Notes: generated by a model from the sequence alone, not told the origin. A stretch of DNA of 64,000 bases from Bacillota bacterium (GCA_051748565.1 JBNJHN010000003.1:9596-73595); one strand, 5' to 3'; shown: positions 1,810 through 29,928, counted from the stretch's first letter. Numbers and translations are program-made.

Positions 1810-2106
1810 TAATCTTACAGGCTTTAAAGGTAACCTTTCATACAGGGTATAAGGTCATCGAAAGTGGGAGTTGGCGGAGGAGATATAAAAAAGCAAGAAA
1901 GGTTTCGGTAACTGCCGGCAGCAGGTTATTGGCGTTTTAGGTAGAAATTAATATTTTTGTAATGGCAATTAGGTAATAAAATGCCTCTTTCCGGTATGTC
2001 AAAATACGTTGCTTTTTTCACAACTTGATGATAGCATAACATTGAGAAATTTTTATCAATCACCCGAAATCCTGGATTGTATTATCTGCAATGAAGCCTG
2101 ATGTTT

Positions 2107-2139
2107 CCGAAACTTTTTTATTATATATGAAAAGTTCGG
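2107..2139. promoter_or_regulatory. Imperfect inverted repeat CCGAAACTTTT-N12-AAAAGTTCGG in the promoter region of the thiolase operon (candidate operator)
   Basis: Seen directly: ccgaaactttt ... aaaagttcgg, with one base of asymmetry. It lies 60-90 bp upstream of the 2198 start codon in an AT-rich leader. Confidence 0.25.
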
Positions 2140-2197
2140 TAAAATTTAAAATAATCTATGATAGGAGGGAATACCCCTATTTCAGGGGGGTAAGAAC

Positions 2198-3379: not shown

Positions 3380-3409
3380 AATTACTACTTAAAACGGGAG
3401 GCTTAATTA

Positions 3410-4297
3410 TTGATGGAAGTAAAGAAATGTTTTATTTTAGGCGCCGGGATTATGGGTACGGGAATAGCTCAACTAATGGCTCAAAAAGGTATTGAAGCTA
3501 TCCTGGTAGATTTAGATGAAGCAATTGCCAAGCGCAGCTTGGCTAATATTGAAAAAGGGCTCCAAAAAAGAGTTGAGAAGGGAAAGATGAGTGAAGAAGA
3601 GGTAAAAGATATTCTTGGGCTCATCAAAATTTCCACGAAAATGGAAGATGCTGCGGACGCTGATTTCATAATTGAAGCAATTGTCGAAAATGTTGAAGTC
3701 AAGCAGAAGGTTTTTGGAGAGCTCGAAAAAATAGCAAGGGAAGATGTAATCCTGGCAACAAATACCACTGCCTGTTCAATTTCTGAAATAGCATCAGCTG
3801 TTTCAAACCCAGGCAGGGTTGTGGGAATGCATTTCTTTAACCCGGCGGTGGTCATGAAACTGGTCGAAATAATGCCTGCTGTATCAACTGATGCTGAAGT
3901 GGTCAATAAAACAAGGGAATTAGCTGAATTTCTCGGCAAAGAACCTGTAGTTACCGCCAAAGAAGGCATCGCCGGAATAGCCAGCCGTGTTCTGGCGGCG
4001 TTGCTTAACGAAGCTGTCTGGGTTCTCGATGAAGGAATCGGGACTGTGAGCGATATTGATAAAGCCATGCAGATGGGAGCCAATCAGCCTATGGGGCCGC
4101 TGACATTAATTGATCTGATTGGCATTGATACTCACCTGGCGAAAACCAGAACTCTTTATGAAAAATTCGGTGATCCGCGTTATCGTCCCTGTTACCTGCT
4201 GGAGAAAATGGTCAATGCCGGATACCTGGGCCGTAAAACTAAAAAAGGATTTTACGATTACGAGCAGGATCCCCCTGTTCCGATGCAGCTAAAATAA
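3410..4297 (+). CDS. hbd: 3-hydroxybutyryl-CoA dehydrogenase
   Basis: Rossmann motif GAGIMGTGIAQ at the N-terminus and 3HCDH N- and C-domain architecture. Sits in an operon with thiolase, ACAD and crotonase. Confidence 0.9.
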   Translation: MMEVKKCFILGAGIMGTGIAQLMAQKGIEAILVDLDEAIAKRSLANIEKGLQKRVEKGKMSEEEVKDILGLIKISTKMEDAADADFIIEAIVENVEVKQKVFGELEKIAREDVILATNTTACSISEIASAVSNPGRVVGMHFFNPAVVMKLVEIMPAVSTDAEVVNKTRELAEFLGKEPVVTAKEGIAGIASRVLAALLNEAVWVLDEGIGTVSDIDKAMQMGANQPMGPLTLIDLIGIDTHLAKTRTLYEKFGDPRYRPCYLLEKMVNAGYLGRKTKKGFYDYEQDPPVPMQLK

Positions 4298-4331
4298 AAC
4301 AAGTAAGGCCAATAAAAAGGAGGTGTTGTTC

Positions 4332-5486
4332 TTGGATTTTGATCATACTCCAGAACAAGAAAGCGTTAGGAAAATGGTTTGTGAATTTGTTTCTAAAGAA
4401 ATTACCCCCTACGCCGGAGAATGGGACAAGGAAGAAAAGTTTCCCTGGGACGTTTGGAAGAAAATGGGCGAAACCGGTATTATCGGAACGGTTATACCCG
4501 AAGAATATGAAGGCAGCGGGATGGATAATATAACCCATGCAATTGTTGCCGAAGAACTGGGTTACGGCTGCACCTCTATGAGAGGAACTTATTCAGTCCA
4601 GATTTCTCTCGTAGCCAAAACCATCCTAACCTTTGGCACTGAAGAACAGAAACAAAAATACCTACCCGGTATGGCCATGGGTGAAATTATCGGCTGCTAT
4701 GGCCTTACTGAACCTGACTCAGGCAGCGATGCAGCCAGCCTTTCATCCACAGCGGAAGAAGACGGTGACTACTACATCCTCAACGGTAATAAGATGTGGA
4801 TTACCAACGCCGGAATTGCCGATGTAGCCATGGTTTTTGCCAAGACAGACAAAAGCGCCGGCGCCAGGGGAATAACTGCTTTTCTTGTAGAAAAAGACAC
4901 TCCCGGCTATTCAACTGAAAAAATTCATGACAAGTTGGGATTGCGGGCTTCCGATACATCGGAGATAATTCTCGACAATGTCAGAGTCCATAAAGATGCA
5001 ATCCTTGGCGAAAAAGGGAAAGGTTTTAAAGTGGCCCTTTCAGCCCTTGACAATGCCCGCTTTACAGTAGCGGCAGGTTGTGTGGGGGCTGCCCAGTCAG
5101 CGCTGGATACGGCAAAGCAGTATGCTAAAGACAGGGTTCAGTTTGGAAAGCCGATTGCCGGTCATCAGCTGGTTCAGCAATTAATCTCCAATATGGTTTT
5201 AGACATTGAATGCGGCCGGTTGTTAGTTTACCGGGCAGGACACCTGAAAAATAAAAAAGTTCCCAATACCCGAGAGACTTCGCTGGCCAAATACTTCTGC
5301 ACCGAAATGGTTAACCGGGTGGCCTATAATGCCATTCAGGTTTTAGGTGGTTACGGTTTTTCCGGGGAATATCCCCTGGAAAGGATTTACCGTGATGCGC
5401 GGGTTAATACCCTTTATGAGGGAACATCCCAAATTCAACAGCTTATCCTGGGCAATATCGAGCTGGGTATACCTGCTTTTACTTAG
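4332..5486 (+). CDS. Acyl-CoA dehydrogenase (short-chain/glutaryl-CoA dehydrogenase-like)
   Basis: ACAD family, about 385 aa, with a C-terminal YEGTSQIQ motif. AAGGAGG is followed by a TTG at 4332 that gives the typical M-D-F-x-x-T-x-E-Q N-terminus. The ORF track lists a GTG at 4323 that is too close to the RBS. Confidence 0.8.
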   Translation: MDFDHTPEQESVRKMVCEFVSKEITPYAGEWDKEEKFPWDVWKKMGETGIIGTVIPEEYEGSGMDNITHAIVAEELGYGCTSMRGTYSVQISLVAKTILTFGTEEQKQKYLPGMAMGEIIGCYGLTEPDSGSDAASLSSTAEEDGDYYILNGNKMWITNAGIADVAMVFAKTDKSAGARGITAFLVEKDTPGYSTEKIHDKLGLRASDTSEIILDNVRVHKDAILGEKGKGFKVALSALDNARFTVAAGCVGAAQSALDTAKQYAKDRVQFGKPIAGHQLVQQLISNMVLDIECGRLLVYRAGHLKNKKVPNTRETSLAKYFCTEMVNRVAYNAIQVLGGYGFSGEYPLERIYRDARVNTLYEGTSQIQQLILGNIELGIPAFT

Positions 5487-5559
5487 ATCTGCATTTTTTA
5501 ATAATTTAAGGGAAAGAAGTCAGTTTTCTTCTTTCTCTTATATATGGAGAGAGGTAAAC

Positions 5560-6339
5560 ATGTTTAATCTATTAAAATTCGTTAAAGAAACCCCGCTGGC
5601 TATTATTACCATAAATCGTCCGGAAGTCAGAAATGCACTATCAAATGCCCTGGTGGAAGAACTGGCGGAAGCTTTTTCCCAGGTTAAAAATGATCCGGAA
5701 ATAAGAACACTGATCATAACCGGAGAAGGGGATAAAGCTTTTATGGCCGGGGCGGATATCAAGGAACTTGAAGAAAGGGATTTTATTAAAGGCCGGGAGC
5801 AGACCAGGCGCCGCCAGGAAGTATTTAATATGCTCTGGGAGATGCCGATTCCTGTAATAGCGGCCATAAATGGTTATGCTTTGGGAGCAGGTTTAGAGTT
5901 GGCCATAGCCTGCACTTTACGTCTGGCTTCTTCGAACGCCCAGATGGGTTCACCGGAAATTAACCTGGGAATCATTCCAGGCGATGGCGGCACTCAGCGC
6001 CTGCCGCGTTTGGTTGGTTTCGGAAGAGCCATGGAAATGGCCTTAACAGGTGGCATGATTGATGCTGAAGAAGCATATCGTATCGGACTGGTTAATAAAC
6101 TGGTTGAACCGGAAAACCTGATGGAAGAAGCAAAGAAATACGCACATAAGCTTGCTGCGAAGTCACCGCTTGCTGTCCAGTACGCAAAAGAGGCAGTTAA
6201 TCGTTCCCTGGAGATGGGACTCTATGAAGGCCTTGCCCATGAATCCTATCTTCATGCACTGGCTTGTGCCACGGAGGATAAGAAAGAAGGCGTGAAGGCT
6301 TTTCTGGAAAAAAGAAAGCCCGAGTACCAGGGGAAATAA
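5560..6339 (+). CDS. Enoyl-CoA hydratase (crotonase family; 3-hydroxybutyryl-CoA dehydratase-like)
   Basis: 259 aa from the ATG at 5560, preceded by GGAGAGAGG. Crotonase fold with AAINGYALGAGLELA and FMAGADIKEL. The longer 5347 ORF overlaps the ACAD 3' end and is rejected. Confidence 0.85.
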   Translation: MFNLLKFVKETPLAIITINRPEVRNALSNALVEELAEAFSQVKNDPEIRTLIITGEGDKAFMAGADIKELEERDFIKGREQTRRRQEVFNMLWEMPIPVIAAINGYALGAGLELAIACTLRLASSNAQMGSPEINLGIIPGDGGTQRLPRLVGFGRAMEMALTGGMIDAEEAYRIGLVNKLVEPENLMEEAKKYAHKLAAKSPLAVQYAKEAVNRSLEMGLYEGLAHESYLHALACATEDKKEGVKAFLEKRKPEYQGK

Positions 6340-6362
6340 TAGCATCGGTTTGATAACTGCAA

Positions 6363-6410
6363 AAGGGTCCGGCCGATAGCGGAATTCCGCTTCGGTTTGG
6401 CCCTTTTTTA
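6363..6410 (+). terminator. Rho-independent terminator candidate after the beta-oxidation operon
   Basis: Extended imperfect GC-rich hairpin (gggtccggccgatagcggaa / ttccgcttcggtttggccc) followed by TTTTTT. Confidence 0.45.
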
Positions 6411-6476
6411 CTTTGATAAATTTCATTTTCATCTGCATAGCTAATCCATTACTTTCCCTTCCTATTATTACCATAA

Positions 6477-6590
6477 TTGAAGGTGGATTCATTCTAAAGG
6501 ACTAATCCATAATTTACTCTTTTTTCACCTTGCTTCCATGCTTTTTAGCGATTCTATTATTATAAATATCCTGTAAACTGGTAAAGTAGA
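6477..6590 (+). repeat. Divergent copy (C) of the conserved ~100-nt intergenic element, 64 bp upstream of bamB
   Basis: gaaggtgg ... tttactcttttttcaccttgcttccatgctttttagcgattctattatt ... gtaaagta aligns to the copies at 28917 and 45853. A ~26-nt insertion follows the first block. Confidence 0.4.
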
Positions 6591-6653
6591 AGTAGTTTAT
6601 AAGTCGCTGGGAATGATTTTACAAAGGAAAACATACCTAAGAGGTGTTGAAAA

Positions 6654-8633
6654 ATGAGATATGCTGAAACAGGGTATAATTTGGAAATTAACTTATCGAC
6701 TGGAAACATTGAGAAGGTGGAAACCGATCCGGAATTAACAAAAATGCATCTGGGCGGCCTGGGAACCAATGCCAGGTTGTTATGGGATCGGGTCCCCCCC
6801 GAAGCTGAACCTTTTTCTCCGGATAATCTTTTAATTTTTGGGACAGGCCTCTTGTGCGGCACCCCTGCTATAGGAGCCAACCGGACTATAATTAGCACTT
6901 ACTCTCCTCAGACTTTATTTATGGCTTTTTCCATGATGGGAGGATTCTTTGCCCCGGAATTAAAATATGCCGGCTATGATAAAGTAATCTTTAGCGGTAA
7001 GTCGCCGAATCTTGTTTACATATGGATTAATAATGACAAAGTAGAAATACGTGATGCTTCTCATTTGCAGGGCAAAGGGGCGGTTCAAACCGAAAAGCTT
7101 ATTCGAGAGGAGCTGCAGGAACCCAATGCCCAGGTAGCCGCTATCGGCCTGGCCGGTGAAAACAGGGTCTATATGGCCTCCATTGAGCACGGACGATCCA
7201 GCGCCAGCAGACTGGGTCTGGGTGCCGTGATGGGTGACAAGGGGATAAAAGCAATAGCTGTACGTGGAACTAACGATGTCAATGTAGCCCGACCGGTTGA
7301 TTTAATTAATTTTTGTACAGATATTCTGAATTATATTCCGGAAAGAGATGGCAATCCGATTCCCGGAGTGATGCCTATCTTAGCCGGGCTTGGTTCGCCG
7401 AAAGAGATGTTAATTCATGATGAAAAGTGGCATACTGAGAATTTCATGTGGGGTAATGCCAGAACACGGATAAAAGATTACTGGACCAAGGATATTGAAG
7501 ATAAGTGGAAAGAATCGCAGGAGAGTGCGCGAAAGCGTCTGATAAGCTGTTATAACTGCCCGATGGAATGCGGAGCCATAATTTCTATTCCCGGTATATC
7601 AACTTACATGATGAAATGTTTCTCGAAGCTCACCTACACCATGGCAGCATACTCAGACCTTGATTTCGGTTTTAGAATAGCGCAGCGTGCCACAGAATAC
7701 GGTGTCGATGGATTTTCTATGCCACAGGTTATGGCCTTTGCCCTCGAGCTTTATGAGGCCGGCATCCTTACAGATGATGACTTTCCGGGTATGCCTTCCG
7801 ATAATGAGGAAAGATTTTTCTGGTTGCTGGACAGGATTGTCCGGCGGGAAGGGATTGGTGATATTCTGGCCGATGGTGTTTACTGGGCAGCCCGCCGGAT
7901 TGGTAAGGGAGCGGAGGAATATGATCATAATACTATTAAAAAGCATGAGCAGTTACCGCTCAAGCTATCAATGCTGAATCCGATTTATTTCCTGATGTGG
8001 GCCACCGGCGAAAAGATTAATATTACCCAGATTGAAGGGAATTTCCCCCAGGCACCTTTTCCCACCCGTGAGGAGCGGGAAGAGTTTGTTAAGGATTGGG
8101 TTCATGTTCCTGATGAGAAGTTCAAGAAATACTTTTTAGATTGGGAACTGCGCGGGGAAAATTCATTTCCTTATTACCCTCCCGTTGATGCTACCTGTGA
8201 AATTGTTGATTGGCAGGAGACCATGCATTATATTGATGATTCCCTCGGATTATGTGCCGGTTTATCATCGTTTCCCCTAAAGCCTCCCTATCATATCCAT
8301 AACCTGCCGATCCTGATTTCGAAAGCAGCCGGAATTGATATGGATAAAGATAAACTGTGGGAAATTGCCAAGAGGAATCGGACTTTATTGAGAGCGATTA
8401 ATGTAAGAAGAGGTTTAAGAAGGGAAGATGACCGTCCTCCTGAGAATCATTGGAAGAAGAGATTCCCCGAACTCGAAGTTCAGCTCTTGGATCAATATTA
8501 CAAACTTAAAGGTTTCAATAACGATGGTGTTCCAACCAGGGAATCCTTACTTGAATTGGGTATGGATTACGTTGGCGAAGACCTGGAGAAGAGAGGGATT
8601 TATGACAATGGCGAAAGTAAAAAAGAAAGTTAA
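6654..8633 (+). CDS. bamB: Tungsten-containing aldehyde:ferredoxin oxidoreductase-family protein; BamB-like active-site subunit of class II benzoyl-CoA reductase
   Basis: 659 aa, AOR N-terminal and catalytic domains. It is the first gene of an AOR / ferredoxin / HdrD / HdrA / MvhD / NuoE / NuoF / NuoG-like cluster. Confidence 0.85.
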   Translation: MRYAETGYNLEINLSTGNIEKVETDPELTKMHLGGLGTNARLLWDRVPPEAEPFSPDNLLIFGTGLLCGTPAIGANRTIISTYSPQTLFMAFSMMGGFFAPELKYAGYDKVIFSGKSPNLVYIWINNDKVEIRDASHLQGKGAVQTEKLIREELQEPNAQVAAIGLAGENRVYMASIEHGRSSASRLGLGAVMGDKGIKAIAVRGTNDVNVARPVDLINFCTDILNYIPERDGNPIPGVMPILAGLGSPKEMLIHDEKWHTENFMWGNARTRIKDYWTKDIEDKWKESQESARKRLISCYNCPMECGAIISIPGISTYMMKCFSKLTYTMAAYSDLDFGFRIAQRATEYGVDGFSMPQVMAFALELYEAGILTDDDFPGMPSDNEERFFWLLDRIVRREGIGDILADGVYWAARRIGKGAEEYDHNTIKKHEQLPLKLSMLNPIYFLMWATGEKINITQIEGNFPQAPFPTREEREEFVKDWVHVPDEKFKKYFLDWELRGENSFPYYPPVDATCEIVDWQETMHYIDDSLGLCAGLSSFPLKPPYHIHNLPILISKAAGIDMDKDKLWEIAKRNRTLLRAINVRRGLRREDDRPPENHWKKRFPELEVQLLDQYYKLKGFNNDGVPTRESLLELGMDYVGEDLEKRGIYDNGESKKES

Positions 8634-9147
8634 GGTAATCAAAATCGACACTGATAAATGTAACGGCTGCAGGTCGTGCGAGGTAATTTGCTCGGCGTTT
8701 CACGCTACCGATAAATATAGTATTATCAATCCCTCCAGGGCCCGAATCCGTCTGATTCGCGATCCACTGCGTGATGTTTACCTTCCTGTATATGCAGGTG
8801 AATATACGCCGGCTGAATGTATGGGCAGAGACAAATATGTTGTCGATGGAAAAGAATATGAAGAATGTGCTTTCTGCAGGGCTTCCTGTCCCTCCAGGGA
8901 TGTTTTCAAAGAGCCTGACTCGGGTCTTCCGCTTAAATGCGACATGTGTGAAGACGATCCGGAACAGGAGGAGCCTCTCTGTGTTAAATGGTGTTTGTCT
9001 GATGCCCTGACATATGAGGAGAGAGAGGAAGAAGTTGAAGAAGAAGTGCTGCTGGACGAGATGGAAACAGGTTTAAAATCACTGGTGGATAAATACGGTT
9101 TAAATAATCTTATTGACAGCATTGCCCGAATGTCACAAAAAGACTAA
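8602..9147 (+). CDS. bamC: 4Fe-4S ferredoxin-domain protein, BamC-like
   Basis: Cys clusters CNGCRSCEVIC, CAFCRASCP and CDMC..C, with an acidic C-terminus. The ATG at 8602 overlaps the bamB stop and follows GAGAGGGA. The exact start is uncertain (8602 or 8608). Confidence 0.7.
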   Translation: MTMAKVKKKVKVIKIDTDKCNGCRSCEVICSAFHATDKYSIINPSRARIRLIRDPLRDVYLPVYAGEYTPAECMGRDKYVVDGKEYEECAFCRASCPSRDVFKEPDSGLPLKCDMCEDDPEQEEPLCVKWCLSDALTYEEREEEVEEEVLLDEMETGLKSLVDKYGLNNLIDSIARMSQKD

Positions 9148-9179
9148 AAGATTATGATAAAGGTGGGGATTATAAAATC

Positions 9180-10331
9180 GTGGATACTGAAGCCCCGATT
9201 AAAGAGGTTATAGAGGAGATAAAAGAATTTGGTGGCGACGCTGTAAAATTTTGTTATCAATGTGGAAAATGCGATACAGTATGTCCCTGGAATAAAGTTA
9301 CAAAATTTAGCATACGCAAGTTGATACGTGAGGCTACTTTTGGCATACCGGAAGTAGAGCTTGAAGAAGTCTGGCGCTGTACTACCTGTGGTAAATGCCC
9401 CCAGGAATGTCCCAGGGACGTAAAGCAAGTAGATGATGTTGTGGCCATGCGCAGGATAGCCGCGGAATATGGTGTATCTTCAACCCTGCTGAAACCTGTT
9501 CGTTCAGCAAGCGCAAGCCTTGCCGCTGAAGGTAATCCCGTTGTCCAGGATCGATCCAGGAGGACTGAATGGGCAGAAGGTCTGAATATAAAACCATTCA
9601 CAGAAGAAATGGAAATTCTTTATTTCTCCTGCTGCTATGTCTGTTATGATCAGAGATTGAAGGAAATTGGTCAGGCCACGGTCAGGCTTCTTAATAAAGC
9701 TGAAGTCGATTTCGGCACACTGGGCACCCTGGAGAACTGTTGTGGAGAAAGTATCCGTAAAACAGGCAATGAAGAAATTTTTAAAAGTCTGGCCAGAGAA
9801 AATATTAAAACCTTTATAGAACACGGGGTCAAGAAAATTCTCGTTTCTTCTCCACATTGCTACCATACTTTTAAGAACGAATATCCTGAATTCAAAGCGA
9901 ATTTTGAAGTGGTTCACATTACCCAGTATTTGCACGATCTAGTTAACGAGGGAAGACTTCAGATCAATAAGGAGTATGAAAAGAAAGTAACCTATCATGA
10001 TCCCTGTTATCTGGGCCGGCATAACGGTATTTATGACATTCCGCGGGAAATTTTAAAAAAGATACCCGGCCTGGAACTAAACGAGATGGCCGAATCGCGT
10101 GAAGACAGTTTATGCTGCGGGATGGGTGGAGGCAGGATTTGGATCGATACCAAGATGCCTGAGAGATTCTCCAATATCAGGATTCAAGATGCAATCAATC
10201 TTGGAGCCGAAGTCCTTGTCACCTCTTGCCCTTATTGTGTTGATGCTCTCGAGGAAAGCAGATCGGGGTTAAACCTGGAAAGTGCTATAGAGATAAAAGA
10301 TATCACGGAAATACTCCAGGAAGTGATCTGA
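9180..10331 (+). CDS. bamD: HdrD-like heterodisulfide-reductase-type protein with a ferredoxin domain and two CCG Cys-rich domains, BamD-like
   Basis: CYQCGKCDTVCP and CTTCGKCPQECP motifs are followed by CCG-type motifs (CCGESI, CCGMGGG). The GTG start lies 11 nt after AAAGGTGGGG. Confidence 0.75.
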   Translation: MDTEAPIKEVIEEIKEFGGDAVKFCYQCGKCDTVCPWNKVTKFSIRKLIREATFGIPEVELEEVWRCTTCGKCPQECPRDVKQVDDVVAMRRIAAEYGVSSTLLKPVRSASASLAAEGNPVVQDRSRRTEWAEGLNIKPFTEEMEILYFSCCYVCYDQRLKEIGQATVRLLNKAEVDFGTLGTLENCCGESIRKTGNEEIFKSLARENIKTFIEHGVKKILVSSPHCYHTFKNEYPEFKANFEVVHITQYLHDLVNEGRLQINKEYEKKVTYHDPCYLGRHNGIYDIPREILKKIPGLELNEMAESREDSLCCGMGGGRIWIDTKMPERFSNIRIQDAINLGAEVLVTSCPYCVDALEESRSGLNLESAIEIKDITEILQEVI

Positions 10332-10400
10332 GGTGCGAAAGATTAAATGTACTGCAATAGAATAGCGGGTTTGATATAAAACCTGATGAGGTGATAGAAA

Positions 10401-13400
10401 GTGGAAAATAAATTGGAAATAAATAGCGGGCAACTTGTCAGAAACCTTGCAGGCAGTAATTTTGGAGATGTAATGGTTGTAGGTGGAGGGGTCAGCGGCA
10501 TCCAGTCATCCTTAGATCTTGCTGCTGCCGGTTTTAAGGTTTATCTTGTTGACAGCGCCCCTGCTATTGGCGGCCATATGGCCCAGCTGGATAAGACCTT
10601 TCCGACCAATGATTGCTCTATGTGAATACTCTCACCCAAACTGGTCGAGGTCGACCGGAATACCAATATTGAGGTCCTTTCCTATACTGAAGTGGATAGT
10701 GTGGAAGGCGAAGCGGGGAACTTTAAAGTAACCCTGAGGAAAAAACCCAGGTATGTATTAGAAGACAAGTGCACCGGCTGCACTGTCTGCGTTGAGTATT
10801 GTCCTGTAAAGTACCCTGATAAATTTAATCAGGATATATCGAAGAATAAAGCGATTCATATATACTATTCTCAGGCAATCCCCCTGATCACCTATATAGA
10901 TGAAAGCTGCATTTACCTGAAAGAGAAAAAGTGTCGCATCTGTGAGGCAGTATGTAAAAACGAGGCAATAGATTTTAATCAGACCGAAGAGAAGGTGGAA
11001 ATAAAAGTCGGGGCTGTAGTTCTGGCTCCGGGTTATGAACCATTTGATCCGGGCATAAGAGAGGACTATGGCTACGGTAAGTTCGAGAATGTGATAACCA
11101 GCATGGATTATGAACGGTTGACGGATTCCACGGGTCCTTATGAAGGCCAGGTCCTGCGCCCTTCCGATATGAAGCATCCCCATAAAGTAGCCTGGATCCA
11201 GTGTGTCGGTTCCAGGCAGGTTAACCCACCGGGCGCGAAAAGCTATTGTTCCTCGGTCTGCTGCACCTATACGCAGAAACAGGTAATATTAACAAAAGAA
11301 CATGACCCTGAATCTGAATGTGTCGTATTCCATAATGACATTCGATCCTACGGCAAAGATTTCGAGCGATTTTATAAAAGGGCAGAGGATCTGCCCGGGG
11401 TTCAATTTATCAGAAGCTATCCGTCGGTGGTAAAGGAAGATCCGGAAACCAGGAGTGTTACGATAAAATATGCAACCAATGATGACGGTGTGAAGGAAGA
11501 AGAATTTGACATGGTTGTATTATCGGTCGGGTTAAATCCACCCGCTGATTTTGAGAAACTGGCTGATAAGTTTGGTATTGAATTAAATGATCATGGCTTC
11601 TGCAAAACTAATCCTGTAAATACAATGCAGACTTCCCGCCCGGGATTATTTATCAGCGGCGCTTTCCAGGGTCCGTTAGATATCCCCGAATCTGTTGTAA
11701 CTGCGAGCGGCGCAGGGTCTCAGTGTGGCGAGCTTCTTAATTACAGGAGAGGGGATCTCTCCAAAGAAAGGGTATATCCTCCGGAAAGGGATGTTTCTTC
11801 AGAAGAACCCAGAATCGGCGTTTTTGTATGTCACTGTGGAGCGAATATCGGCAGGGTGGTTGATGTTCCTTCCAATGTTGAATATTCCTTAACCCTGCCC
11901 AACGTTGTCTATGCCCAGGAACAGCTTTTTTCATGTGCAACTAATTGTGCCGAAGAAATTACTGAGAAGATAAAAGAGAAAGAGCTAAACCGCGTAATCG
12001 TTGCCGCCTGTTCTCCGAGGACACTTGAAATGTTATTCCGGGATACACTTCGGGAGGCGGGGCTGAATCAATACTACTATGAAATGGCCAATATCAGGGA
12101 ACATTGCTCCTGGGTTCACCCCAAAGAAAAAGATAAAGCTACTCAAAAATCCAAGGATATTATTCGAATGGCAGTAGCCCGTGCCCGCCACCTGGAGCCG
12201 TTAATGGAGATAGATCTGCCGGTTGATAAAAGGGCTCTGGTGGTTGGTGGAGGAATTGCCGGCATGACCTGTGCACTCTCTATTGCCGCTCAGGGGCATG
12301 AAGTGCACCTGGTGGAAAAGGATAAAAACCTGGGAGGAACAGCAAGGAAAATATATGATACCCTGGAAGGGCTTGATGTTCAGACCTATTTACGCGACAT
12401 GATCGGCAAAGTTTATCAAAACCCCCTGATCCATGTTTATACCGATGCTGCAATCAAACAGAACACAGGGTATATTGGAAATTTTATTACCAGGGTGGAG
12501 ATTGATGGAAGAATAGCAGAAATTAAGCATGGAGCAACTGTGATTGCCACGGGTGCTGATGTTTATACACCCAGCGAATACCTTTATGGTAAAGATGACA
12601 GGGTTCTGACCCATCTCGAGTTGGAAGAAAAGATTGTTGAAGAAGATGAAAAAGTTATTAATGCTGAAAACCTGGTTATGATTCAGTGCGTGGGTTGCAG
12701 AAATGAAGACAGGGATTATTGTAGTCGAATCTGCTGTAACGAATCCGTAAAAAACGCCCTGAAGCTAAAAGAGAAAAACCCGCAGATGGATATCTATATT
12801 CTCTTCAGGGACATGAGAACCTATGGTTATAATGAAGATTTTTACAGGGCTGCGGCGGATAAAGATATCAAATTTATTCGTTACGAACCTGAAGAAGAAC
12901 CACAGATTGAAGCTGCTGAGGGAGAAAACGGGCCTGTTTTAAGGGTTACCCTGCCCGATTATGTTTTAGAGAAAAAACTTGAAATAGATGCTGATATTAT
13001 TGCACTGGCTGCTGCTGTTATTCCTTCTGCAGGGGCTAAAGAAATAGAAAGCTTATTCAAGGTTGGCTTGAACCAGGATGGTTTCTTTAAAGAGGCCCAT
13101 GTTAAATTAAGGCCGGTTGAATTTGCTGCAGACGGTGTTTATCTTTGTGGCTTGGCACACTATCCAAAGCTGATTTCAGAGACGGTCAGCCAGGCTTATG
13201 GTGCCGCGGGCCGGGTTTTAACCCTTCTTTCAAAAGATATCGTGACCGCTTCCGGCTCTATATGTGAGGTTGAAGAAGAAAAGTGTGTTTCCTGTGGAGC
13301 ATGTATTGCAGCCTGTACCTACGGTGCCATAGAATTCCGGGAAACAGAAATGGGTATTAAAGCTTTTGTCAATCCTGTTCTTTGTAAAGGTGACGGAGTC

Positions 13401-13526
13401 TGCAATGCAGTTTGCCCGACAGGGGCCATACAACTTAAGCACTTTACCGACAAAGAACTCTTGAGTCAAATCGATGCTGCAATACCGGAAGAAGAAGTCA
13501 TAAAGAAAATTGAAGCGCTGGTTTAG
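10401..13526 (+). CDS. bamE: HdrA-like FAD/FeS flavoprotein, BamE-like, with in-frame UGA (selenocysteine) at 10623-10625
   Basis: The track ORFs 10401-10625 and 10692-13526 are in the same frame and separated only by TGA. The reading is ...[23 protein letters not shown]..., which puts the UGA at the conserved HdrA Cys. Also present are an N-terminal FAD motif [10 protein letters not shown], a second GGGIAG motif, and several CxxCxxCxxxCP ferredoxin motifs. Confidence 0.8.
10641..10658 (+). other. Candidate bacterial SECIS hairpin 15 nt downstream of the bamE UGA
   Basis: ctGGTCGaggtCGACCgg forms a 5-7 bp stem with a small G-containing loop at the spacing expected for SelB-dependent recoding. 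Confidence 0.4.
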
Positions 13527-13671
13527 AACTTTTGGCAATACAAAATGTTTAGTTACTCAATTTAATATAAATCAAAATAAAATTTCTATTTCACCATAGC
13601 AAGGGAAATGAGTCTTTGGAAGTTTTTAAAAAATATATTTAAACGTATTAGAAACACAGGAGGTGTGGCGA

Positions 13672-14439
13672 ATGAGTACAGAAATGACTTTTAAACCAAG
13701 CATTATTGGTTTTGTATGTCAGTGGTGAGGATATGGAGCTGCGGATCTGGCTGGAGTTTCCAGACTACAATATACAACTGAAATCAGGCTTATTCGCGTT
13801 ATGTGCACCGGTAGAATCGACCTCGCACATATAATTAGGGCTTTCTCAAATGGGATAGATGGTGTTTTTATTGGTGGTTGTCGTTTAAATGAATGTAATT
13901 ATATTACTCACGGAAATTTTCATGCACTAAATATTGTGCTTCTTTGTAAGAAAATGATGGAATACATCGGTCTGAATCCCGAACGTTTGAGGATTGAGTT
14001 TATGTCATCCGGGGAGGGGAATCTTTTTGCCGAAGTTGTCGATGATTTTGTAGAGACAGTCAGGGAGACAGGCCCTCTTGGAAAAAGTGAGGGAATTGAT
14101 GAAACTGGATTAAAAGTAAATCTTAAAGCTATAACCAGCTTAATCCCCTATATCAGGCTGGTGGAAAGTGAAAGGCTAAGAGGGCACTTTGGAACATTAG
14201 CAGAGTTCAGGGACTTTTATTCCAGCGAAGAATTTGAAAGGCTCTTCCAGGAGCTGATCGCAGATAAACTGGCAATCAGCCAAATTATGATGCTCCTGCG
14301 GGAAAAACCCCTGTCTACGGGAGAAATCTCTGAGATACTGGGTCTTTCCCCGTCTGAAATATCAAAACACCTGAATAGTTCAGCAAAGCTTGGCCTGGTC
14401 AGGTATGAGGAAAATGAGAAGCGCTTTGCTTCTGTCTGA
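13672..14439 (+). CDS. bamF: MvhD/FlpD-like (methyl-viologen-reducing hydrogenase delta subunit family) protein, BamF-like, with in-frame UGA (selenocysteine) at 13726-13728
   Basis: The ATG at 13672 follows AGGAGGTG. Translation [53 protein letters not shown] places the UGA at the second Cys of the conserved CxWC..GADLAG MvhD motif. It is in frame with the track ORF 13801-14439. Confidence 0.75.
13746..13764 (+). other. Candidate SECIS hairpin about 18 nt downstream of the bamF UGA
   Basis: tCTGGAgttTCCAGa forms a 5-bp stem with a 3-nt loop. An alternative pairing is tctgg/ccaga with a 9-nt loop. Confidence 0.35.
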
Positions 14440-14487
14440 TACTAATCAGCAATCAGCATGGTGAAGGGGGATCGCGGGGCAGAGGCC

Positions 14488-14940
14488 ATGGATAATACCA
14501 GAATTGATCAAATCGTTGAAAAATATGACTGTGAAGCCAGTTCGCTCATCCAGGTATTATTGGAAATTCAGAGTGAAAACCGCTGGCTTCCAAAGCAGGT
14601 ATTGGAGAGGATTAGCGAAAGGCTAGAGGTGCCTTTGGCCAGAATACAGCACATTGCTACTTTTTATAAGGCATTTAGTTTAGTTCCGAAGGGCCGTCAT
14701 GAAATACATATTTGCATGGGTACCGCCTGTCATGTCCGTGGTGCGCAACTTGTCCTCGACAAAGTTCAAGACCTGACCGGTATTAACCCTGGCGAAACAG
14801 ACCTGGATCTCAAATTCAGCCTGGAGACGGTTAACTGTCTTGGTTGTTGTGCTTTAGGCCCGGTGATGGAAATTAATGGGCAAATTCACGGGAAGATATC
14901 ACCGGCCGAGACAGCAGATGCCCTAAAAAAATACGACTGA
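14488..14940 (+). CDS. bamG: NuoE-like 2Fe-2S thioredoxin-fold ferredoxin, BamG-like
   Basis: Cys pattern CMGTACHVRG ... CLGCCALGP is typical of NuoE/HoxE. The ATG at 14488 follows GGGGCAGAGG. The upstream in-frame ATG at 14458 has no RBS. Confidence 0.75.
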   Translation: MDNTRIDQIVEKYDCEASSLIQVLLEIQSENRWLPKQVLERISERLEVPLARIQHIATFYKAFSLVPKGRHEIHICMGTACHVRGAQLVLDKVQDLTGINPGETDLDLKFSLETVNCLGCCALGPVMEINGQIHGKISPAETADALKKYD

Positions 14941-14962
14941 GGGAAGATTGTGAGGGAAGATT

Positions 14963-16885
14963 ATGCCACGGATAAACTCACCTGCTGAACTGGAAGCAAT
15001 CAGAAAGGAATTACTGTCTCAACGAGATCCCGACAAACGGACTATTACGCTTTGCTCCGGTTCTGCCTGCCACGCAACGGGCAGCAGGTTGGTAGCTGAG
15101 AGTATCGAAGAAGAGATAAAAAAACAGGGTTTAACTGATCAAGTCGATATAAGGAAGACTGGTTGCCATGGTTTTTGTGAGAGAGGTCCGATCATAGTTA
15201 TCCACCCCGATGAAATATGCTACTTACAGATTAAGCCCGATGATGTTCCTGAAATTATTTCTGAGACGATCAAAGAAAATAGGATCATAGAGCGTTTACT
15301 TTATAAAGATCCCGCTACAGAGGAAGAGATAATTCATGAACATGAAATTCCCTTCTACAAGAACCAGAAAAGGCTTCTTTTCGGGGCCAATATTACAATA
15401 GATCCCAAAAGTATTGAAGACTACCTGGCTATTGGCGGTTATTCTGCGCTGGTTAAAGTTCTTTTTGAAATGAATCCTGAACAGGTTTTGGAAGAAATTA
15501 AAAAATCTAACCTGAGGGGCAGAGGTGGCGGCGGCTTTCCGGCAGGGATAAAATGGGAAGGCTCCCGTAATGCACCGGATGATAAGAAATATGTAATAGT
15601 AAATGCGGACGAAGGTGACCCCGGAGCCTACATGGATAGAAGTTTACTCGAAGGCAATCCTCATTCAGTTCTTGAGGGGCTGGCGATTGGAGCTTATACC
15701 ATTGGCGCAGAGGAGGGTTATATTTACGTTCGGCAGGAATACCCGCTGGCAGTAGAAAATATTGGTATTGCGATCAGCCAGGCTGAGGAATATGGATTCC
15801 TGGGGGATAATATTCTCGGCTCAGGCTTTAATTTCAAAGTTATTGTGCACCAGGGGGCAGGCGCGTTTGTCTGCGGCGAGTCTAGCGCTTTAATGACGGC
15901 TTTGGAAGGCAGGGCAGGTGAACCAAGGCCGAAGTATATCCGTTCAAACATCAAGGGCCTATGGGAAAAACCTACTGTTTTGAATAATGTTGAAACCTGG
16001 GCCAATGTTCCATTAATTATCAATAACGGTGCCGATTGGTTTACACAATATGGAACGGAAAAAAGCAAGGGTACAAAGATTTTTTCATTGGTAGGCAAAA
16101 TAAACAATACCGGTCTTGTAGAAGTAGCGATGGGTATGACCCTGCGAGATATTATTTTCAAAATAGGTGGCGGAATCCCCGGAGACAAGAAGTTTAAAGC
16201 AGTACAGACTGGCGGGCCGTCCGGCGGCTGCCTGCCAGCAGATTTATTAGATTTGGAAGTAGGTTTTGATGAGCTTACCCAGGCCGGCTCGATGATGGGT
16301 TCCGGGGGTATGATTGTCATGGATGAAGATACCTGCATGGTTGATGTGGCCAGGTATTTCCTTGATTTTCTCGCTGATGAATCGTGCGGTAAATGTGTCC
16401 CCTGCCGCGAAGGTGTCAAACAGATGCTGAACATTTTGACTAATATTACCCGGGGTAAGGGTAAGGAGGGTGATATTGAGCTTTTGGAGGAGCTGGCGGA
16501 GGTGGCCAGAGAGGGAGCACTCTGTGCTTTGGGTCAGACTGCGCCAAATCCGTTTATAAGTACATTAAAGTATTTTAAAGATGAGTATGAAGCACATATC
16601 AATGAAAAGAAGTGCCCGGCACTATATTGCAAAGAGCTTATTGACTACTATATTGATCCGGAAAAATGCCGGGCCTGTATGATTTGTCTCAAACAGTGTC
16701 CCGCAGATGCAATTATAGGGGAAAAGAAAAAGATCCATATAATAGACCAGGAGAAATGCACGAAGTGCAATACTTGTTTTGAGGTTTGTCCACCCCGTTT
16801 TAATGCGGTGAAGAAAATATCCGGTGAACCTGTCCCGCCTCCAATTTCCGAAGAAGAAAGAGTTATCACCAGGGGGAATAATTAA
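14963..16885 (+). CDS. bamH: NuoF-like NAD(P)H-binding FMN/4Fe-4S flavoprotein with extra N-terminal thioredoxin-like and C-terminal 2x[4Fe-4S] domains, BamH-like
   Basis: 640 aa. Contains the GRGGGGFPAGIKW FMN/NADH motif, the SLBB domain, CGKCVPCREG, and the C-terminal CRACMICLKQCP and CTKCNTCFEVCP motifs. Confidence 0.85.
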   Translation: MPRINSPAELEAIRKELLSQRDPDKRTITLCSGSACHATGSRLVAESIEEEIKKQGLTDQVDIRKTGCHGFCERGPIIVIHPDEICYLQIKPDDVPEIISETIKENRIIERLLYKDPATEEEIIHEHEIPFYKNQKRLLFGANITIDPKSIEDYLAIGGYSALVKVLFEMNPEQVLEEIKKSNLRGRGGGGFPAGIKWEGSRNAPDDKKYVIVNADEGDPGAYMDRSLLEGNPHSVLEGLAIGAYTIGAEEGYIYVRQEYPLAVENIGIAISQAEEYGFLGDNILGSGFNFKVIVHQGAGAFVCGESSALMTALEGRAGEPRPKYIRSNIKGLWEKPTVLNNVETWANVPLIINNGADWFTQYGTEKSKGTKIFSLVGKINNTGLVEVAMGMTLRDIIFKIGGGIPGDKKFKAVQTGGPSGGCLPADLLDLEVGFDELTQAGSMMGSGGMIVMDEDTCMVDVARYFLDFLADESCGKCVPCREGVKQMLNILTNITRGKGKEGDIELLEELAEVAREGALCALGQTAPNPFISTLKYFKDEYEAHINEKKCPALYCKELIDYYIDPEKCRACMICLKQCPADAIIGEKKKIHIIDQEKCTKCNTCFEVCPPRFNAVKKISGEPVPPPISEEERVITRGNN

Positions 16886-16887
16886 CA

Positions 16888-17499
16888 ATGAGTAAAATTT
16901 TATTGACTATTGATGGCAAAGAGGTTGAAGCAAATGATGATATGACTATATTGGAAGCGGCACAAAGTATAGGTATAGTTATACCTACACTTTGTCACCA
17001 CGAGAAGTTAGAACCTTATGGGGGGTGTCGGGTTTGCACAGTTGAGGTAGAATCAAATGGCAGGACTAAGCTGGTTGCAGCCTGTGTTTATCCGGCAGAG
17101 CGTAATTTAACTGTTATAACCAGGTCCGAAAAGATAGACAGAATTCGCAAAATGATCTTACAGCTATTGCTTTCTCATGCCCCGGATTCCGAGCAGCTGC
17201 AGGATTTGGCCAAGGAGTATGGCGCAGATAGTAATCGCTTTGAAAAAGAGGCTTCATTTTGCATACATTGTGGTTTATGTGTAAGGTACTGCAACGAAAT
17301 AAAAAAGAAGGATGCTGTCGGATTTATCAACAGAGGTGCCAGAAGAGAGATAAACTTTATCCCGGAGGTTGCCTCCAAAGAATGCTGGCATTGCAAAGAA
17401 TGTTTCCCACTCTGTCCCACAGCGGCACTTCAGGCAGCTTATGTTTTCACTGAAGCCCTTGTGGCTTCTAAAGCTCCTTTTGAAACTGAATCTGATTGA
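16888..17499 (+). CDS. bamI: NuoG N-terminal-like 2Fe-2S/4Fe-4S ferredoxin, BamI-like
   Basis: 203 aa. A 2Fe-2S fold (CHHEKLEPYGGCRVCTVEV) is followed by CIHCGLCVRYCN and CWHCKECFPLCP. Confidence 0.7.
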   Translation: MSKILLTIDGKEVEANDDMTILEAAQSIGIVIPTLCHHEKLEPYGGCRVCTVEVESNGRTKLVAACVYPAERNLTVITRSEKIDRIRKMILQLLLSHAPDSEQLQDLAKEYGADSNRFEKEASFCIHCGLCVRYCNEIKKKDAVGFINRGARREINFIPEVASKECWHCKECFPLCPTAALQAAYVFTEALVASKAPFETESD

Positions 17500-17568
17500 T
17501 GAAGCTTCAAGCTGCCCCGACTAATCCTGCACGATCTTCAGAATGGTATTCCTGATTTTTTGCAGTTA

Positions 17569-19479
17569 TTATTCTTTGAAAGCAATTTCAATTATATAAA
17601 CCCCTGAGGAAAATTTCTTTTCCACCACCGAGCCGGTTTTCTCCAATAAATGCAAAACATGTTTATTGTCGGGCAGTATTTCAGCTTTAAAGCCGACCAG
17701 ACCTTGTTTTTTTGCAATATAAGCCAGGTAAGAAAGTAGTTTAGTGCCTAAACCTTTTTGATGGTAATCGTCTCTGACGACCAAGGCAACCTGGGCAGTG
17801 AGAGTGCCTTCAATTACTGCAAATTGACCAACCCCGATCACTACTTCAGAGTCACCGTCCTCAATAGTCGCCAGGATAACCATTTCCTTTGTATAATCAA
17901 TTACGACAAAAATGTCCTGCAGCATTTCATGGGGCATATCTTTCCTTCGTGAAAGAAAGCGGTTATATTTTGTTTCATCTGAAAGTTTATAAAAGAAGTC
18001 TTTTAAAAGGGGCTCATCACTTATCTTAACCGGTCGCAGGCGAAATTCCAGCCCTGATTTTGTTGCCTTGTGCGTCTCAAGTTCAGCAGGGTATTCTCCT
18101 TTTTCTCCGGGCATAAAAGCCTGGTCCTGATAAATAAGAGATGCCTTCTTTGCTTCTTCAATCAGCCATGGTTGGAAATCAGGATGGGCGATAGAAATCA
18201 AGGCCATTGCTCTTTCCCTGATATTTTTACCATGCAGATATGCTATCCCGAATTCTGTAACCACGTAATGAATATCACCGCGGGTTAGTGTTACACCGGC
18301 GCCTTCTTTAAGAAAAGGGACGATTCTGGATATTTTTCCGCCATCAGTAGTTGAAGGCAAGGTAAGAATGGTTTTGCCACCCGGTGCCAGAACCGCACCA
18401 CGCATGAAATCTGCCTGGCCGCCGATTCCGCTGAAAAAAAATCTGCCGAGAGATTCTGCCGTAGCCTGCCCGGTTAAATCTATTTCCAGTGCGGTATTAA
18501 TTGCCACCATGTTTTTATTCATAGAAATTGTGATGGGACTGTTTGTATAGTCAATCTGCTTAAATTCTATACTCGGATTATCATCAAGGAATCGATATGT
18601 CGCCTTACTCCCCATGCAAAAGGAGGCTACAGTTTTTCCCCGGTCGACAGTTTTTTTAGAGTTATTGACCACGCCTTTTTTCATAAGCTCCACGATTCCA
18701 TCACTGAGCAATTCCGTATGGACACCTAAATTATTTTTTGATTCAAGACTGTTAAGAATTGCATTCGGCAGGCTTCCGTAACCGACCTGAATAGTATTGC
18801 CATCTTCAATTATCCGTGAAGCAAACTGGCCAATTTTTTTAACAGCATCAGAAGGCGTATCGGGAGTTTTATATTCCAGTACGGGCTCGTCATAATGCAC
18901 CACGAAATCAACATCTTTGATTTTTAGGAATGTATCCCCATGAGTTCTCGGCATTTTAGAATTGAGCTGGGCAATTACCAGAGAGGCATTTTCAACTGCA
19001 GTCTTGGTAATATCAACACTGATCCCGAGGCTCAGGTATCCGTGCTTATCGGGAAGTGAGGTTTGGATAATGGCGACGTCGACAGGCACCAGCTTGCGCC
19101 GGAATAATTCCGGAATTCCGGAAGCGAATATGGGAGTATAATCAGCAACTCCTTTGTTCACTATCTCCCTGGTATTTTCTACAATGAAGAAAGAATTATG
19201 CCTGAAGTTTTTCCTGAATTTATGATCGGCATATGGTGCAACACCTAGAGTCCAGACATGTAAAATTTCAGTGTCAAAGAAAGCTTTCGGGTTAGATTCT
19301 ACGAACTTTATCAGAGCCTGAACCAGGTACTGGGGTTCGCCACAACCGGTACCGATGTAGATCCTGTCACCGGCGTGAATATGACTGAAAATAACTTCTT
19401 CCGTGTCAAATTTTTCAGGGTATTTTTCTTTTGATTTTTCCAAATGAGCTTTCCGTTGTTGAATGTTTTCCCGATTCAT
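17569..19479 (-). CDS. Acetyl-CoA hydrolase/transferase-family (4-hydroxybutyrate / succinyl-CoA:acid CoA-transferase type) protein fused to a C-terminal GNAT acyltransferase domain
   Basis: 636 aa. The N-terminal ~450 aa form a family-I CoA-transferase (AcetylCoA_hydro/transf). The C-terminal ~170 aa show the GNAT motif A region (VVRDDYHQKGLGTKLLSYL). Convergent with bamI. Confidence 0.75.
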   Translation of the reverse strand: MNRENIQQRKAHLEKSKEKYPEKFDTEEVIFSHIHAGDRIYIGTGCGEPQYLVQALIKFVESNPKAFFDTEILHVWTLGVAPYADHKFRKNFRHNSFFIVENTREIVNKGVADYTPIFASGIPELFRRKLVPVDVAIIQTSLPDKHGYLSLGISVDITKTAVENASLVIAQLNSKMPRTHGDTFLKIKDVDFVVHYDEPVLEYKTPDTPSDAVKKIGQFASRIIEDGNTIQVGYGSLPNAILNSLESKNNLGVHTELLSDGIVELMKKGVVNNSKKTVDRGKTVASFCMGSKATYRFLDDNPSIEFKQIDYTNSPITISMNKNMVAINTALEIDLTGQATAESLGRFFFSGIGGQADFMRGAVLAPGGKTILTLPSTTDGGKISRIVPFLKEGAGVTLTRGDIHYVVTEFGIAYLHGKNIRERAMALISIAHPDFQPWLIEEAKKASLIYQDQAFMPGEKGEYPAELETHKATKSGLEFRLRPVKISDEPLLKDFFYKLSDETKYNRFLSRRKDMPHEMLQDIFVVIDYTKEMVILATIEDGDSEVVIGVGQFAVIEGTLTAQVALVVRDDYHQKGLGTKLLSYLAYIAKKQGLVGFKAEILPDNKHVLHLLEKTGSVVEKKFSSGVYIIEIAFKE

Positions 19480-19669
19480 TATTTCTCATTCCCTTCATTG
19501 ATTGCATGAATAATTGTTAACCAGGCAACCACTTTTATTCTATCACAAGCTAACCTTAATCATAAAACACAATTACCGATTCCGATGGCAAGCCAATAGA
19601 GGGGTTTTCAAAAATGCTGATGATCAAGTATACTGTTCCCATAGTAGATTTAGGCAAGGAGGAAAGTTT

Positions 19670-24283: not shown

Positions 24284-24396
24284 GTTCGCTGTTCAAAAAT
24301 CAAATCGTTTGATTTTGCTTAAGATATAAGTCAAATTGGTGGAGGGGGCTTCCACCATCCCGGAGTATTTTTCCGGCGAGGTGGGCGCCCTCTCTG

Positions 24397-26249: not shown

Positions 26250-26336
26250 GAATAGGAAATCTATAAAACAGAGTTGCTATAAGATTTATAATTAATAAAG
26301 CAAATTAAATTTAATTTATATGATTAAAAATATTCA

Positions 26337-26368
26337 CAAGCCGGTTTAAATCCCGGCTTGTTTTTTTC
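26337..26368 (+). terminator. Rho-independent terminator after the TRAP operon
   Basis: CAAGCCGG-tttaaatc-CCGGCTTG followed by TTTTTTT. Confidence 0.6.
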
Positions 26369-26382
26369 TATCCGCCAAAAAC

Positions 26383-27099: not shown

Positions 27100-27134
27100 T
27101 TCAAGAACTCCTTCCCGAGCTTCCCGAGTGAAAC

Positions 27135-29915: not shown

Positions 29916-29928
29916 AGGAGGGGTTGGC

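Follow-up and report, generated by a model that had tools for sequence, protein, structure and literature searches.

A probable class II benzoyl-CoA reductase gene cluster, bamBCDEFGHI, with two predicted selenocysteine codons in an uncultured Bacillota bacterium

A window of 64,000 nucleotides from a Bacillota bacterium (GCA_051748565.1 JBNJHN010000003.1:9596-73595; this whole stretch is meant by "the window", and positions are counted from its first letter) carries eight co-directional genes at positions 6654-17499 of the plus strand, in the order bamB-C-D-E-F-G-H-I (Table 1). According to the open reading frame (ORF) list for positions 5000-19000 and the translations, 6654 is the start of bamB and 17499 the stop of bamI, so that the gene order and the extent given by the original prediction, which had been made from the sequence alone, both hold. 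The gaps between successive genes are -26, 32, 69, 145, 18, 22 and 2 nt, with bamC overlapping bamB by 26 nt, and a Shine-Dalgarno sequence (AGAGGTG) lies 5' of bamB. Based on our analysis, the region very likely encodes a class II, ATP-independent benzoyl-coenzyme A (CoA) reductase of the Bam[(BC)2DEFGHI]2 type, and its host is an uncultured Bacillota bacterium. The Pfam and NCBIfam architecture of each of the eight proteins is the one to be anticipated for its subunit. The comparison of BamBC with crystallised proteins, the tungsten and zinc residues, two predicted selenocysteine (Sec) codons with hairpins, and residues at consistent numbering offsets in the other subunits all agree with the complete class II set that had been predicted.

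The catalytic subunit BamB, which consists of the Pfam domains AFOR_N and AFOR_C, aligned with BamB of Geobacter metallireducens (4z3w_A in PDB) at 1133 bits and 72% identity, residues 1-651 on residues 1-651, with 0 gaps; the second-best solved structure, the aldehyde ferredoxin oxidoreductase (AOR) of Pyrococcus, reached only 221 bits. Since the alignment is gapless, the published residue numbers apply directly. The features specific to BamB have been defined as the tungsten ligand Cys322 and the residues Glu251, His255, Glu257 and His260, and a protein Cys ligand to tungsten is absent from the remaining AOR/WOR members, the YdhV clade apart (PMC12096430, a 2025 review). The inspection of BamB for the tungsten-ligating cysteine and the zinc site, which had been suggested together with the prediction, found Cys322 and all four Zn-binding/proton-relay residues in place, and the [4Fe-4S] cysteines C299, C302, C306 and C534 are kept as well. 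BamC, with a polyferredoxin architecture in Pfam and NCBIfam, aligned with G. metallireducens BamC (4z3w_E) at 257 bits over residues 5-178. The top matches are thus the crystallised BamB and BamC and not generic paralogs, and the residues that bind the tungsten cofactor are not missing, which removes these two doubts that the original prediction had itself raised.

The remaining subunits were tested through the residues named in a 2026 cryo-EM preprint on the Geobacter holo-complex (10.64898/2026.04.10.717634), and conservation was assessed in 80 related loci (L001-L080) obtained by scanning the GTDB representative genomes with BamB. In BamD, which has two CCG domains (CCG 4e-32 plus Fer4 in Pfam) and 2x[4Fe-4S], HdrC and HdrB matched weakly; its top solved-structure match was 9ojn_A, a 1042-aa "Iron-sulfur-binding reductase" (215 bits, residues 59-379), far above HdrB/HdrC. 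H226, W321 and Y352 of BamD are invariant in 67/67 relatives, and a constant offset of -4 suggests that they correspond to His230, Trp325 and Tyr356 of Geobacter BamD, which fill the heterodisulfide site (10.64898/2026.04.10.717634). BamE contains two FAD/NAD Rossmann regions and ferredoxin domains; it matched the NCBIfam models HdrA2 (934 bits in three stretches, cut-off 1100) and HdrA (724 bits, cut-off 1400), and aligned to HdrA structures of PDB in three stretches at 640 bits. Its K293, aligned with Lys409 of HdrA in 5odc_A and kept in 66 relatives, would be the Geobacter Lys280 at an offset of +13. The same offset would place the Geobacter pair Cys59-Cys62 on Cys72/Sec75, the sole CxxC-type pair before BamE residue 124. 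By this offset Geobacter Gln768 maps to BamE position 781, which is variable among relatives. Lys784, at the second FAD, was considered as an unusual residue and rejected, being kept in 64/66 relatives.

BamF matched FlpD (4e-45) and HTH_5 (2e-10) in Pfam, as well as MvhD/VhuD; the ArsR-type helix-turn-helix (HTH) match is explained by its C-terminal winged HTH, and both Sec19 and a winged HTH have been described in Geobacter BamF (10.64898/2026.04.10.717634). BamG carries a 2Fe-2S_thioredx domain (3e-49) and matched the HoxE and NuoE models at ~131 bits. In BamH, where Complex1_51K, NADH_4Fe-4S, 2Fe-2S_thioredx and Fer4 were found, the FMN-proximal Asp219 is present under the same residue number as the Asp219 named for Geobacter BamH (10.64898/2026.04.10.717634). 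BamI is composed of Fer2_4, Fer4_7 and Fer4_Nqo3 and matched HoxU at 111 bits and the N-terminal region of NuoG at 110 bits.

The eight genes might be taken for generic AOR, Hdr/Mvh and Nuo/Hox paralogues that have come together without being related in function and have no aromatic role, such as an aldehyde oxidoreductase beside a heterodisulfide reductase and a module of NADH dehydrogenase, as the name given to BamB by NCBI, only [quoted passage not shown], and the purely generic domains shown by Pfam could suggest. This explanation is effectively refuted. All eight proteins stay under the curated cut-offs of the equivalog models for generic AOR, Hdr and Nuo proteins: the AOR equivalog NF007354 scored 208 bits on BamB against a cut-off of 868, over residues 6-226 of the N-terminal domain only, and the Cys ligand to tungsten is present, so that BamB differs from a generic AOR on both counts. 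Furthermore, the HdrA models stay under their cut-offs on BamE, a fused double HdrA, the BamD residues said to block the heterodisulfide site are conserved, and the order BCDEFGHI recurs in related loci of other genomes. In view of the BamB and BamC scores and this recurring order, an assembly of bam genes such as this one is far beyond chance.

Two of the genes are incomplete in the mechanical ORF list, in which bamE is open only from 10692 (360 nt past the preceding stop) and bamF only from 13801 (275 nt). Their conserved N-termini are regained by reading through one in-frame TGA each; bamE then begins with GTG at 10401, preceded by the Shine-Dalgarno sequence GAGGTG, and bamF with ATG at 13672, preceded by AGGAGGTG. 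We read both TGAs as selenocysteine codons, at which the incorporation of selenium is predicted. Both fall where the Hdr/Mvh homologues have Cys, the bamE site being aligned to DCSMC / DCSIC of HdrA. Among related loci, 61 of 68 have TGA at the equivalent of bamE codon 75 and the other 7 have TGC or TGT; at the equivalent of bamF codon 19, TGA occurs in 55 of 59 and a Cys codon in 3.

Each of these codons is followed by a hairpin resembling a selenocysteine insertion sequence (SECIS) element. All 7 pairs of the bamE hairpin are held in 62 distinct sequences, and the bamF hairpin is invariant across 55. Conservation at third-codon positions rises to 0.87-1.00 at codons +5 to +12 of bamE (elsewhere ~0.4-0.85, mostly 0.5-0.7) and to 0.93-1.00 at codons +8 to +12 of bamF (~0.5-0.7 at most other positions); such frozen third-codon positions after the TGA point to a constraint that acts on the RNA in addition to the coding one. 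The loci with Cys served as a control: the bamE hairpin is intact in 62/63 Sec-type loci and weakened to 4-6 of 7 pairs in 6/7 Cys-type loci, and, of the bamF hairpin, all 57/57 Sec-type loci keep 4/4 pairs, the 3 loci of the Cys type only 1-2 of 4. A BamE Sec with a SECIS element has been reported for Desulfococcus multivorans dmul_C24500/10 (PMC5109826).

If the two stops were nonsense mutations instead, the cluster would be decaying and the complex would not be made. The mechanical ORF list, together with the gene callers on related contigs that split BamE (74 aa + ~940 aa) and shorten BamF to 212 aa, would be in keeping with this, yet we regard it as highly improbable, given that both stops are TGA at the Cys positions of the homologues, that TGA is found there in most of the independent loci counted above, and that conserved hairpins follow. 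Sec in BamE/BamF is also documented in D. multivorans and G. metallireducens, and the cluster contains no frame disruptions besides the two TGAs.

Several observations weigh against the assignment to a class II benzoyl-CoA reductase or against parts of it. Single-sequence folds of the 60 nt past each UGA were no better than shuffles (z = -0.2 and -0.5), and the support for the SECIS elements comes entirely from the comparative data. No selA, selB, selD or tRNA-Sec was found in the 64-kb window, to which the search was confined, nor does this window hold a gene for an electron-transferring flavoprotein (ETF) or for tungstate transport. The equivalences of BamD to BamI with Geobacter rest on numbering offsets and not on direct alignment. 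Lastly, in D. multivorans the presumed orthologue of Geobacter BamB is 79% identical to it and a second paralogue 64% (PMC5109826); the 72% identity found here falls between the two, and the substrate specificity is therefore less than certain.

The last point leaves room for a Bam-type complex acting on a different aryl-CoA or on an alicyclic CoA ester, for example a substituted benzoyl-CoA. Many anaerobes have several bamB paralogues, with six copies in Desulfotomaculum gibsoniae (PMC4148979), and other aromatic-acid genes of unclear substrate are carried in the window. We nevertheless consider a different substrate improbable, because all of the named active-site residues of BamB are kept in the gapless alignment, a complete bamC-I set adjoins, and oah and had of the benzoyl-CoA pathway lie in the window, above their equivalog cut-offs.

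As regards the incorporation of tungsten and selenium, the assembly of the complex, its substrate, its electron donors and acceptors, and the co-transcription of its genes, what we describe here we infer. By homology to the enzyme of G. metallireducens, BamGH (FMN, NAD(H), Fe-S clusters) would accept electrons from NADH and reduced ferredoxin, and BamI together with the MvhD-like BamF (Sec19) would relay them to the bifurcating FAD of the double-HdrA BamE. The low-potential electron would then run through BamE, by way of its redox-active pair Cys72/Sec75 and its Fe-S clusters, and on through the three clusters of BamC to the tungsten-bis-pterin-OH2 site of BamB, where benzoyl-CoA would be converted to cyclohexa-1,5-diene-1-carbonyl-CoA. 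The high-potential electron would exit through the HdrD-like BamD to an acceptor, which in Geobacter is ETF.

The original prediction had described the eight genes as a single operon. The upstream beta-oxidation genes are separated from bamB by an intrinsic terminator just 3' of the enoyl-CoA hydratase stop at 6339; it sits in a fold of -32 kcal/mol (z = -4.4 against shuffles, none of 200 of which folded as well). Such a strong terminator places the bam genes outside the upstream operon and marks the 5' boundary of the bam unit. An internal terminator in the 145-nt gap between bamE and bamF was considered and rejected, no stable structure being present there, and the consensus scan revealed no intergenic terminator. 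None was found 3' of bamI, where a convergent gene starts 69 nt further. The consensus scan, for promoters and terminators, covered positions 1800-19600, gave counts equal to those in shuffles, and missed the real terminator at 6361-6407. A search for the sigma-54 -24/-12 pattern returned 28 matches where 33 were expected, which is the chance level, and Rfam gave no element within or near the cluster. A single operon can reasonably be inferred; the absence of an internal terminator and the strong one before bamB speak for it, and its 3' end lacks the corresponding signal.

The nearest GTDB representatives, metagenome-assembled genomes (MAGs) labelled Syntrophomonadaceae, Dethiobacter or Bacillota, have 85-86% BamB identity; none exceeds 86% and none is the source of the window. 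Searching the 80 related loci by tblastn (E <= 1e-10) found B, C, D, E, F and H but neither G nor I in 28 of them, and in a close Bacillota relative (L004) bamB-F are followed by a weak BamI-like match alone, with no BamGH. The NADH/ferredoxin input module therefore seems to be more variable than the core. Relatives at 97% identity, found in a JGI metagenome and an ENA metagenome (L081 and L082), have the same synteny, and related contigs carry the same 179-aa bamC call overlapping bamB. The gene calls on these two contigs (L081 13748-16870, L082 13749-16874) split BamE into a 74-aa N-terminal piece and a remainder of 838-941 aa, and on L082 (17155-17793) BamF is called from after the TGA, as 212 aa. 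Judging by the two contigs checked, the annotation of these selenoproteins seems to go wrong in this way repeatedly. The public record MGM0688113.1, from an NCBI MAG named "Bacillota bacterium", has a 100%-identical BamB on a 73.9-kb contig, where its label mentions no more than an AOR N-terminal domain; exact-sequence look-ups of BamB, BamH, Oah and P0001 in a contig index returned nothing. The generic description in the public record can now give way to a functional name for the cluster.

The best-known counterpart is Bam[(BC)2DEFGHI]2 of G. metallireducens GS-15 (PDB 4Z3W-4Z40 for BamBC), whose eight genes are adjacent here. The likeness extends to a BamC homologous over its full length, the predicted Sec19 and the winged HTH of BamF, D219 of BamH, the bifurcating-FAD lysine and the CxxC/U pair of BamE, and H/W/Y at the heterodisulfide site of BamD. 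It also includes the neighbourhood: a thiolase, an acyl-CoA dehydrogenase and an acetyltransferase-type gene adjoin the cluster, as bamN, bamM and bamK do in Geobacter. Beside the cluster, as the N-acetyltransferase gene bamK is beside the bam genes in Geobacter, lies a fusion gene at 17569-19479 (minus strand), convergent with bamI, that encodes an acetyl-CoA hydrolase/transferase-family protein with a C-terminal GNAT acetyltransferase domain; it scored 285 bits, under the cut-off, on the butyryl-CoA:acetate CoA-transferase model, and the same fusion occurs in the 97%-identical contig L082. The host differs, being a Bacillota bacterium and not a Geobacter (placed by the cited literature in the Deltaproteobacteria), and no bamOP (ETF) genes lie within 64 kb.

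The sulfate reducers D. multivorans and Desulfosarcina cetonica share the tungsten/selenium type of cluster, BamE being a selenoprotein with SECIS in D. multivorans, as it is predicted to be here. D. multivorans has duplicated bamB-D with bamOP between the copies, whereas the window holds a single copy and no ETF genes. Class II reductase clusters are also known in Gram-positive anaerobes of the same phylum, namely D. gibsoniae (PMC4148979) and Dethiobacter and Thermincola MAGs from benzoate enrichments, one of the Dethiobacter MAGs having a full benzoate pathway (PMC8115662); the present host is a different species, with one bamB copy in this window. Among other bifurcating systems, BamE resembles HdrA, BamF MvhD/VhuD and BamD HdrC plus HdrB of HdrABC-MvhAGD, and BamGHI match NuoEFG, HoxEFU and HydBC of the HydABC-type hydrogenase modules. 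In contrast to these systems, no hydrogenase and no heterodisulfide site is present, BamE is a fused, permuted HdrA dimer, the curated Hdr/Nuo equivalog cut-offs are all missed, and the low-potential output would go to a tungsten enzyme and not to ferredoxin. Overall, this canonical cluster is an ordinary representative of a system that has been studied well and the gene order, cofactors and Gram-positive occurrence of which have already been described. Its significance is that ATP-independent dearomatisation of benzoyl-CoA becomes likely for one more lineage, an uncultured one of the Bacillota; its value lies in the corrected annotation and in two naturally occurring sequence variations, at sites that currently attract mechanistic interest.

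The first of these sites is the BamE redox pair. The Cys59-Cys62 disulfide of Geobacter BamE has been placed on the low-potential electron route to cluster E3 (10.64898/2026.04.10.717634). Where G. metallireducens has Cys62, a Sec75 is predicted here, and Sec is the majority state among relatives; a selenenylsulfide would thus replace the disulfide in this enzyme and in most of its relatives. With Sec in 61/68 loci, the Geobacter model enzyme would itself be atypical at this pair. The second site is in the N-terminal CCG domain of BamD, where Cys155 stands in place of a Ser in G. metallireducens and Cys151 is a further extra cysteine. In Geobacter BamD, the change from Cys to Ser is reported to give the distal cluster, D4, a modified [3Fe-4S] form, and most homologues have a disrupted D4 (10.64898/2026.04.10.717634). 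Since the domain has all five cysteines here, a canonical non-cubane [4Fe-4S] distal cluster is predicted. Of 66 relatives, 52 have Ser at position 155 and 11 have Cys (13 with the near-identical contigs L081 and L082 added), and the residue differs even in close relatives (Cys in L001, Ser in L002, L004 and L005, Thr in L003).

Thus, the lineage may be a natural variant at both sites, combining a selenenylsulfide low-potential relay with an altered high-potential exit, although we consider this combination rather doubtful. Since the 64 kb contain no ETF gene, the electron of high potential could leave through an exit with a different tuning or to some other acceptor. Both variants are already implied by the literature and are not new kinds of system. 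In this small survey, most BamE redox pairs have Sec and few distal BamD motifs are all-Cys, which may help researchers of the bifurcation mechanism to pick comparison enzymes.

Table 1. Coordinates of the bam genes, the recoded codons and RNA features, and the flanking pathway genes in the 64,000-nt window
Feature	Position	Strand	Description
bamB	6654-8633	+	659 aa; tungsten-pterin catalytic subunit, AOR family
bamC	8608-9147	+	179 aa; ferredoxin-like, three [4Fe-4S] clusters, 12 Cys in cluster motifs
bamD	9180-10331	+	383 aa; HdrD-like (HdrC plus HdrB), two cubane [4Fe-4S] motifs, two CCG domains
bamE	10401-13526	+	1041 aa; fused double HdrA-like flavoprotein, predicted Sec at codon 75
bamF	13672-14439	+	255 aa; MvhD/FlpD-like [2Fe-2S] adaptor, C-terminal winged HTH, predicted Sec at codon 19
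bamG	14458-14940	+	160 aa; NuoE/HydC-like thioredoxin-fold [2Fe-2S] subunit
bamH	14963-16885	+	640 aa; NuoF/HydB-like, FMN/NAD(H)-binding, N-terminal [2Fe-2S] thioredoxin domain, C-terminal 2x[4Fe-4S]
bamI	16888-17499	+	203 aa; NuoG N-terminus/HoxU-like, one [2Fe-2S] and two [4Fe-4S] motifs
In-frame TGA, bamE codon 75	10623-10625	+	read as Sec; second residue of CxxC/U redox pair
In-frame TGA, bamF codon 19	13726-13728	+	read as Sec; motif FVCQW-U-GYG
SECIS-like hairpin of bamE	10641-10658	+	7-bp stem, apical loop AGGU, begins 18 nt past UGA
SECIS-like hairpin of bamF	13751-13763	+	CUGG / CCAG stem, loop AGUUU
Intrinsic terminator before bamB	6361-6409	+	hairpin 6361-6407, then U tract
Thiolase	2198-3379	+	Pfam
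3-Hydroxyacyl-CoA dehydrogenase	3410-4297	+	Pfam
Acyl-CoA dehydrogenase	4323-5486	+	Pfam; ambiguous type
Enoyl-CoA hydratase	~5545-6339	+	Pfam
oah	46679-47809	+	TIGR03200 578 bits, cut-off 464; passes
dch candidate	48001-48765	+	TIGR03189 155 bits, cut-off 292
had	48790-49857	+	TIGR03201 485 bits, cut-off 339; passes

The surroundings of the cluster had been predicted to comprise a glutaryl-/crotonyl-CoA beta-oxidation operon upstream and oah-dch-had genes 29 kb downstream, and together with it a full benzoyl-CoA pathway. This is supported only in part: beta-oxidation genes were indeed found upstream and the oah and had genes 29 kb downstream, the latter two passing their cut-offs, but the candidates for the glutaryl-CoA dehydrogenase and dch do not pass theirs. 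The acyl-CoA dehydrogenase scored 379 bits against a cut-off of 470 on the model of the Desulfococcus-type glutaryl-CoA dehydrogenase (Acd), and its best PDB match, 3mpi (345 bits), is followed by a short-chain acyl-CoA dehydrogenase at 343 bits. The dch candidate stays under the TIGR03189 cut-off and cannot be told from generic crotonases, so that its name is owed to its position between oah and had. The window contains no ETF gene and no glutaconyl-CoA decarboxylase gene, and none of its three AMP-forming CoA ligases reaches a benzoate-CoA ligase model. The window is clearly an aromatic-acid catabolic region; a complete pathway is not demonstrable in it.

Other genes of the window may be related to aromatic or organic acids. 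Those at 33067-41749 (plus strand) encode a 2-hydroxyacid dehydrogenase, two HGD-D subunits (HadBC/FldBC/BcrBC-like, under curated cut-offs), an indolepyruvate-type 2-oxoacid:ferredoxin oxidoreductase (alpha, beta), an AMP-forming CoA ligase and an MFS transporter. The group resembles an aryl-pyruvate/aryl-lactate branch, from which benzoyl-CoA could be supplied. A gene for an activator ATPase was not seen in the window. At 29905-32724 and 46011-46508 (plus strand), genes for an SDR, an SCP-x-type thiolase, an Amidohydro_2 protein (compare bamU of Geobacter) and a DUF35/ChsH2 OB-fold protein are typical of the beta-oxidation of aromatic-acid side chains. Genes for the TRAP transporter components DctP, DctQ and DctM (plus strand) lie at 23153-28865 beside those for a GAF-domain histidine kinase and a LuxR-type response regulator (minus strand), and may have a part in the uptake of an organic or aromatic acid and in the regulation connected with it.

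Two further features were observed towards the end of the window. A pntAB-type proton-translocating NAD(P) transhydrogenase is encoded at 55761-58737 (minus strand) as an alpha subunit, a four-transmembrane (4TM) alpha-2 piece and a beta subunit. A tandem glycine riboswitch (Rfam RF00504, 66 and 42 bits) at 60383-60578 (plus strand) precedes gcvT-gcvH-gcvPA; its second aptamer extends over the GTG at 60448 that the mechanical call takes as the start, and the real start of gcvT is therefore probably further downstream.

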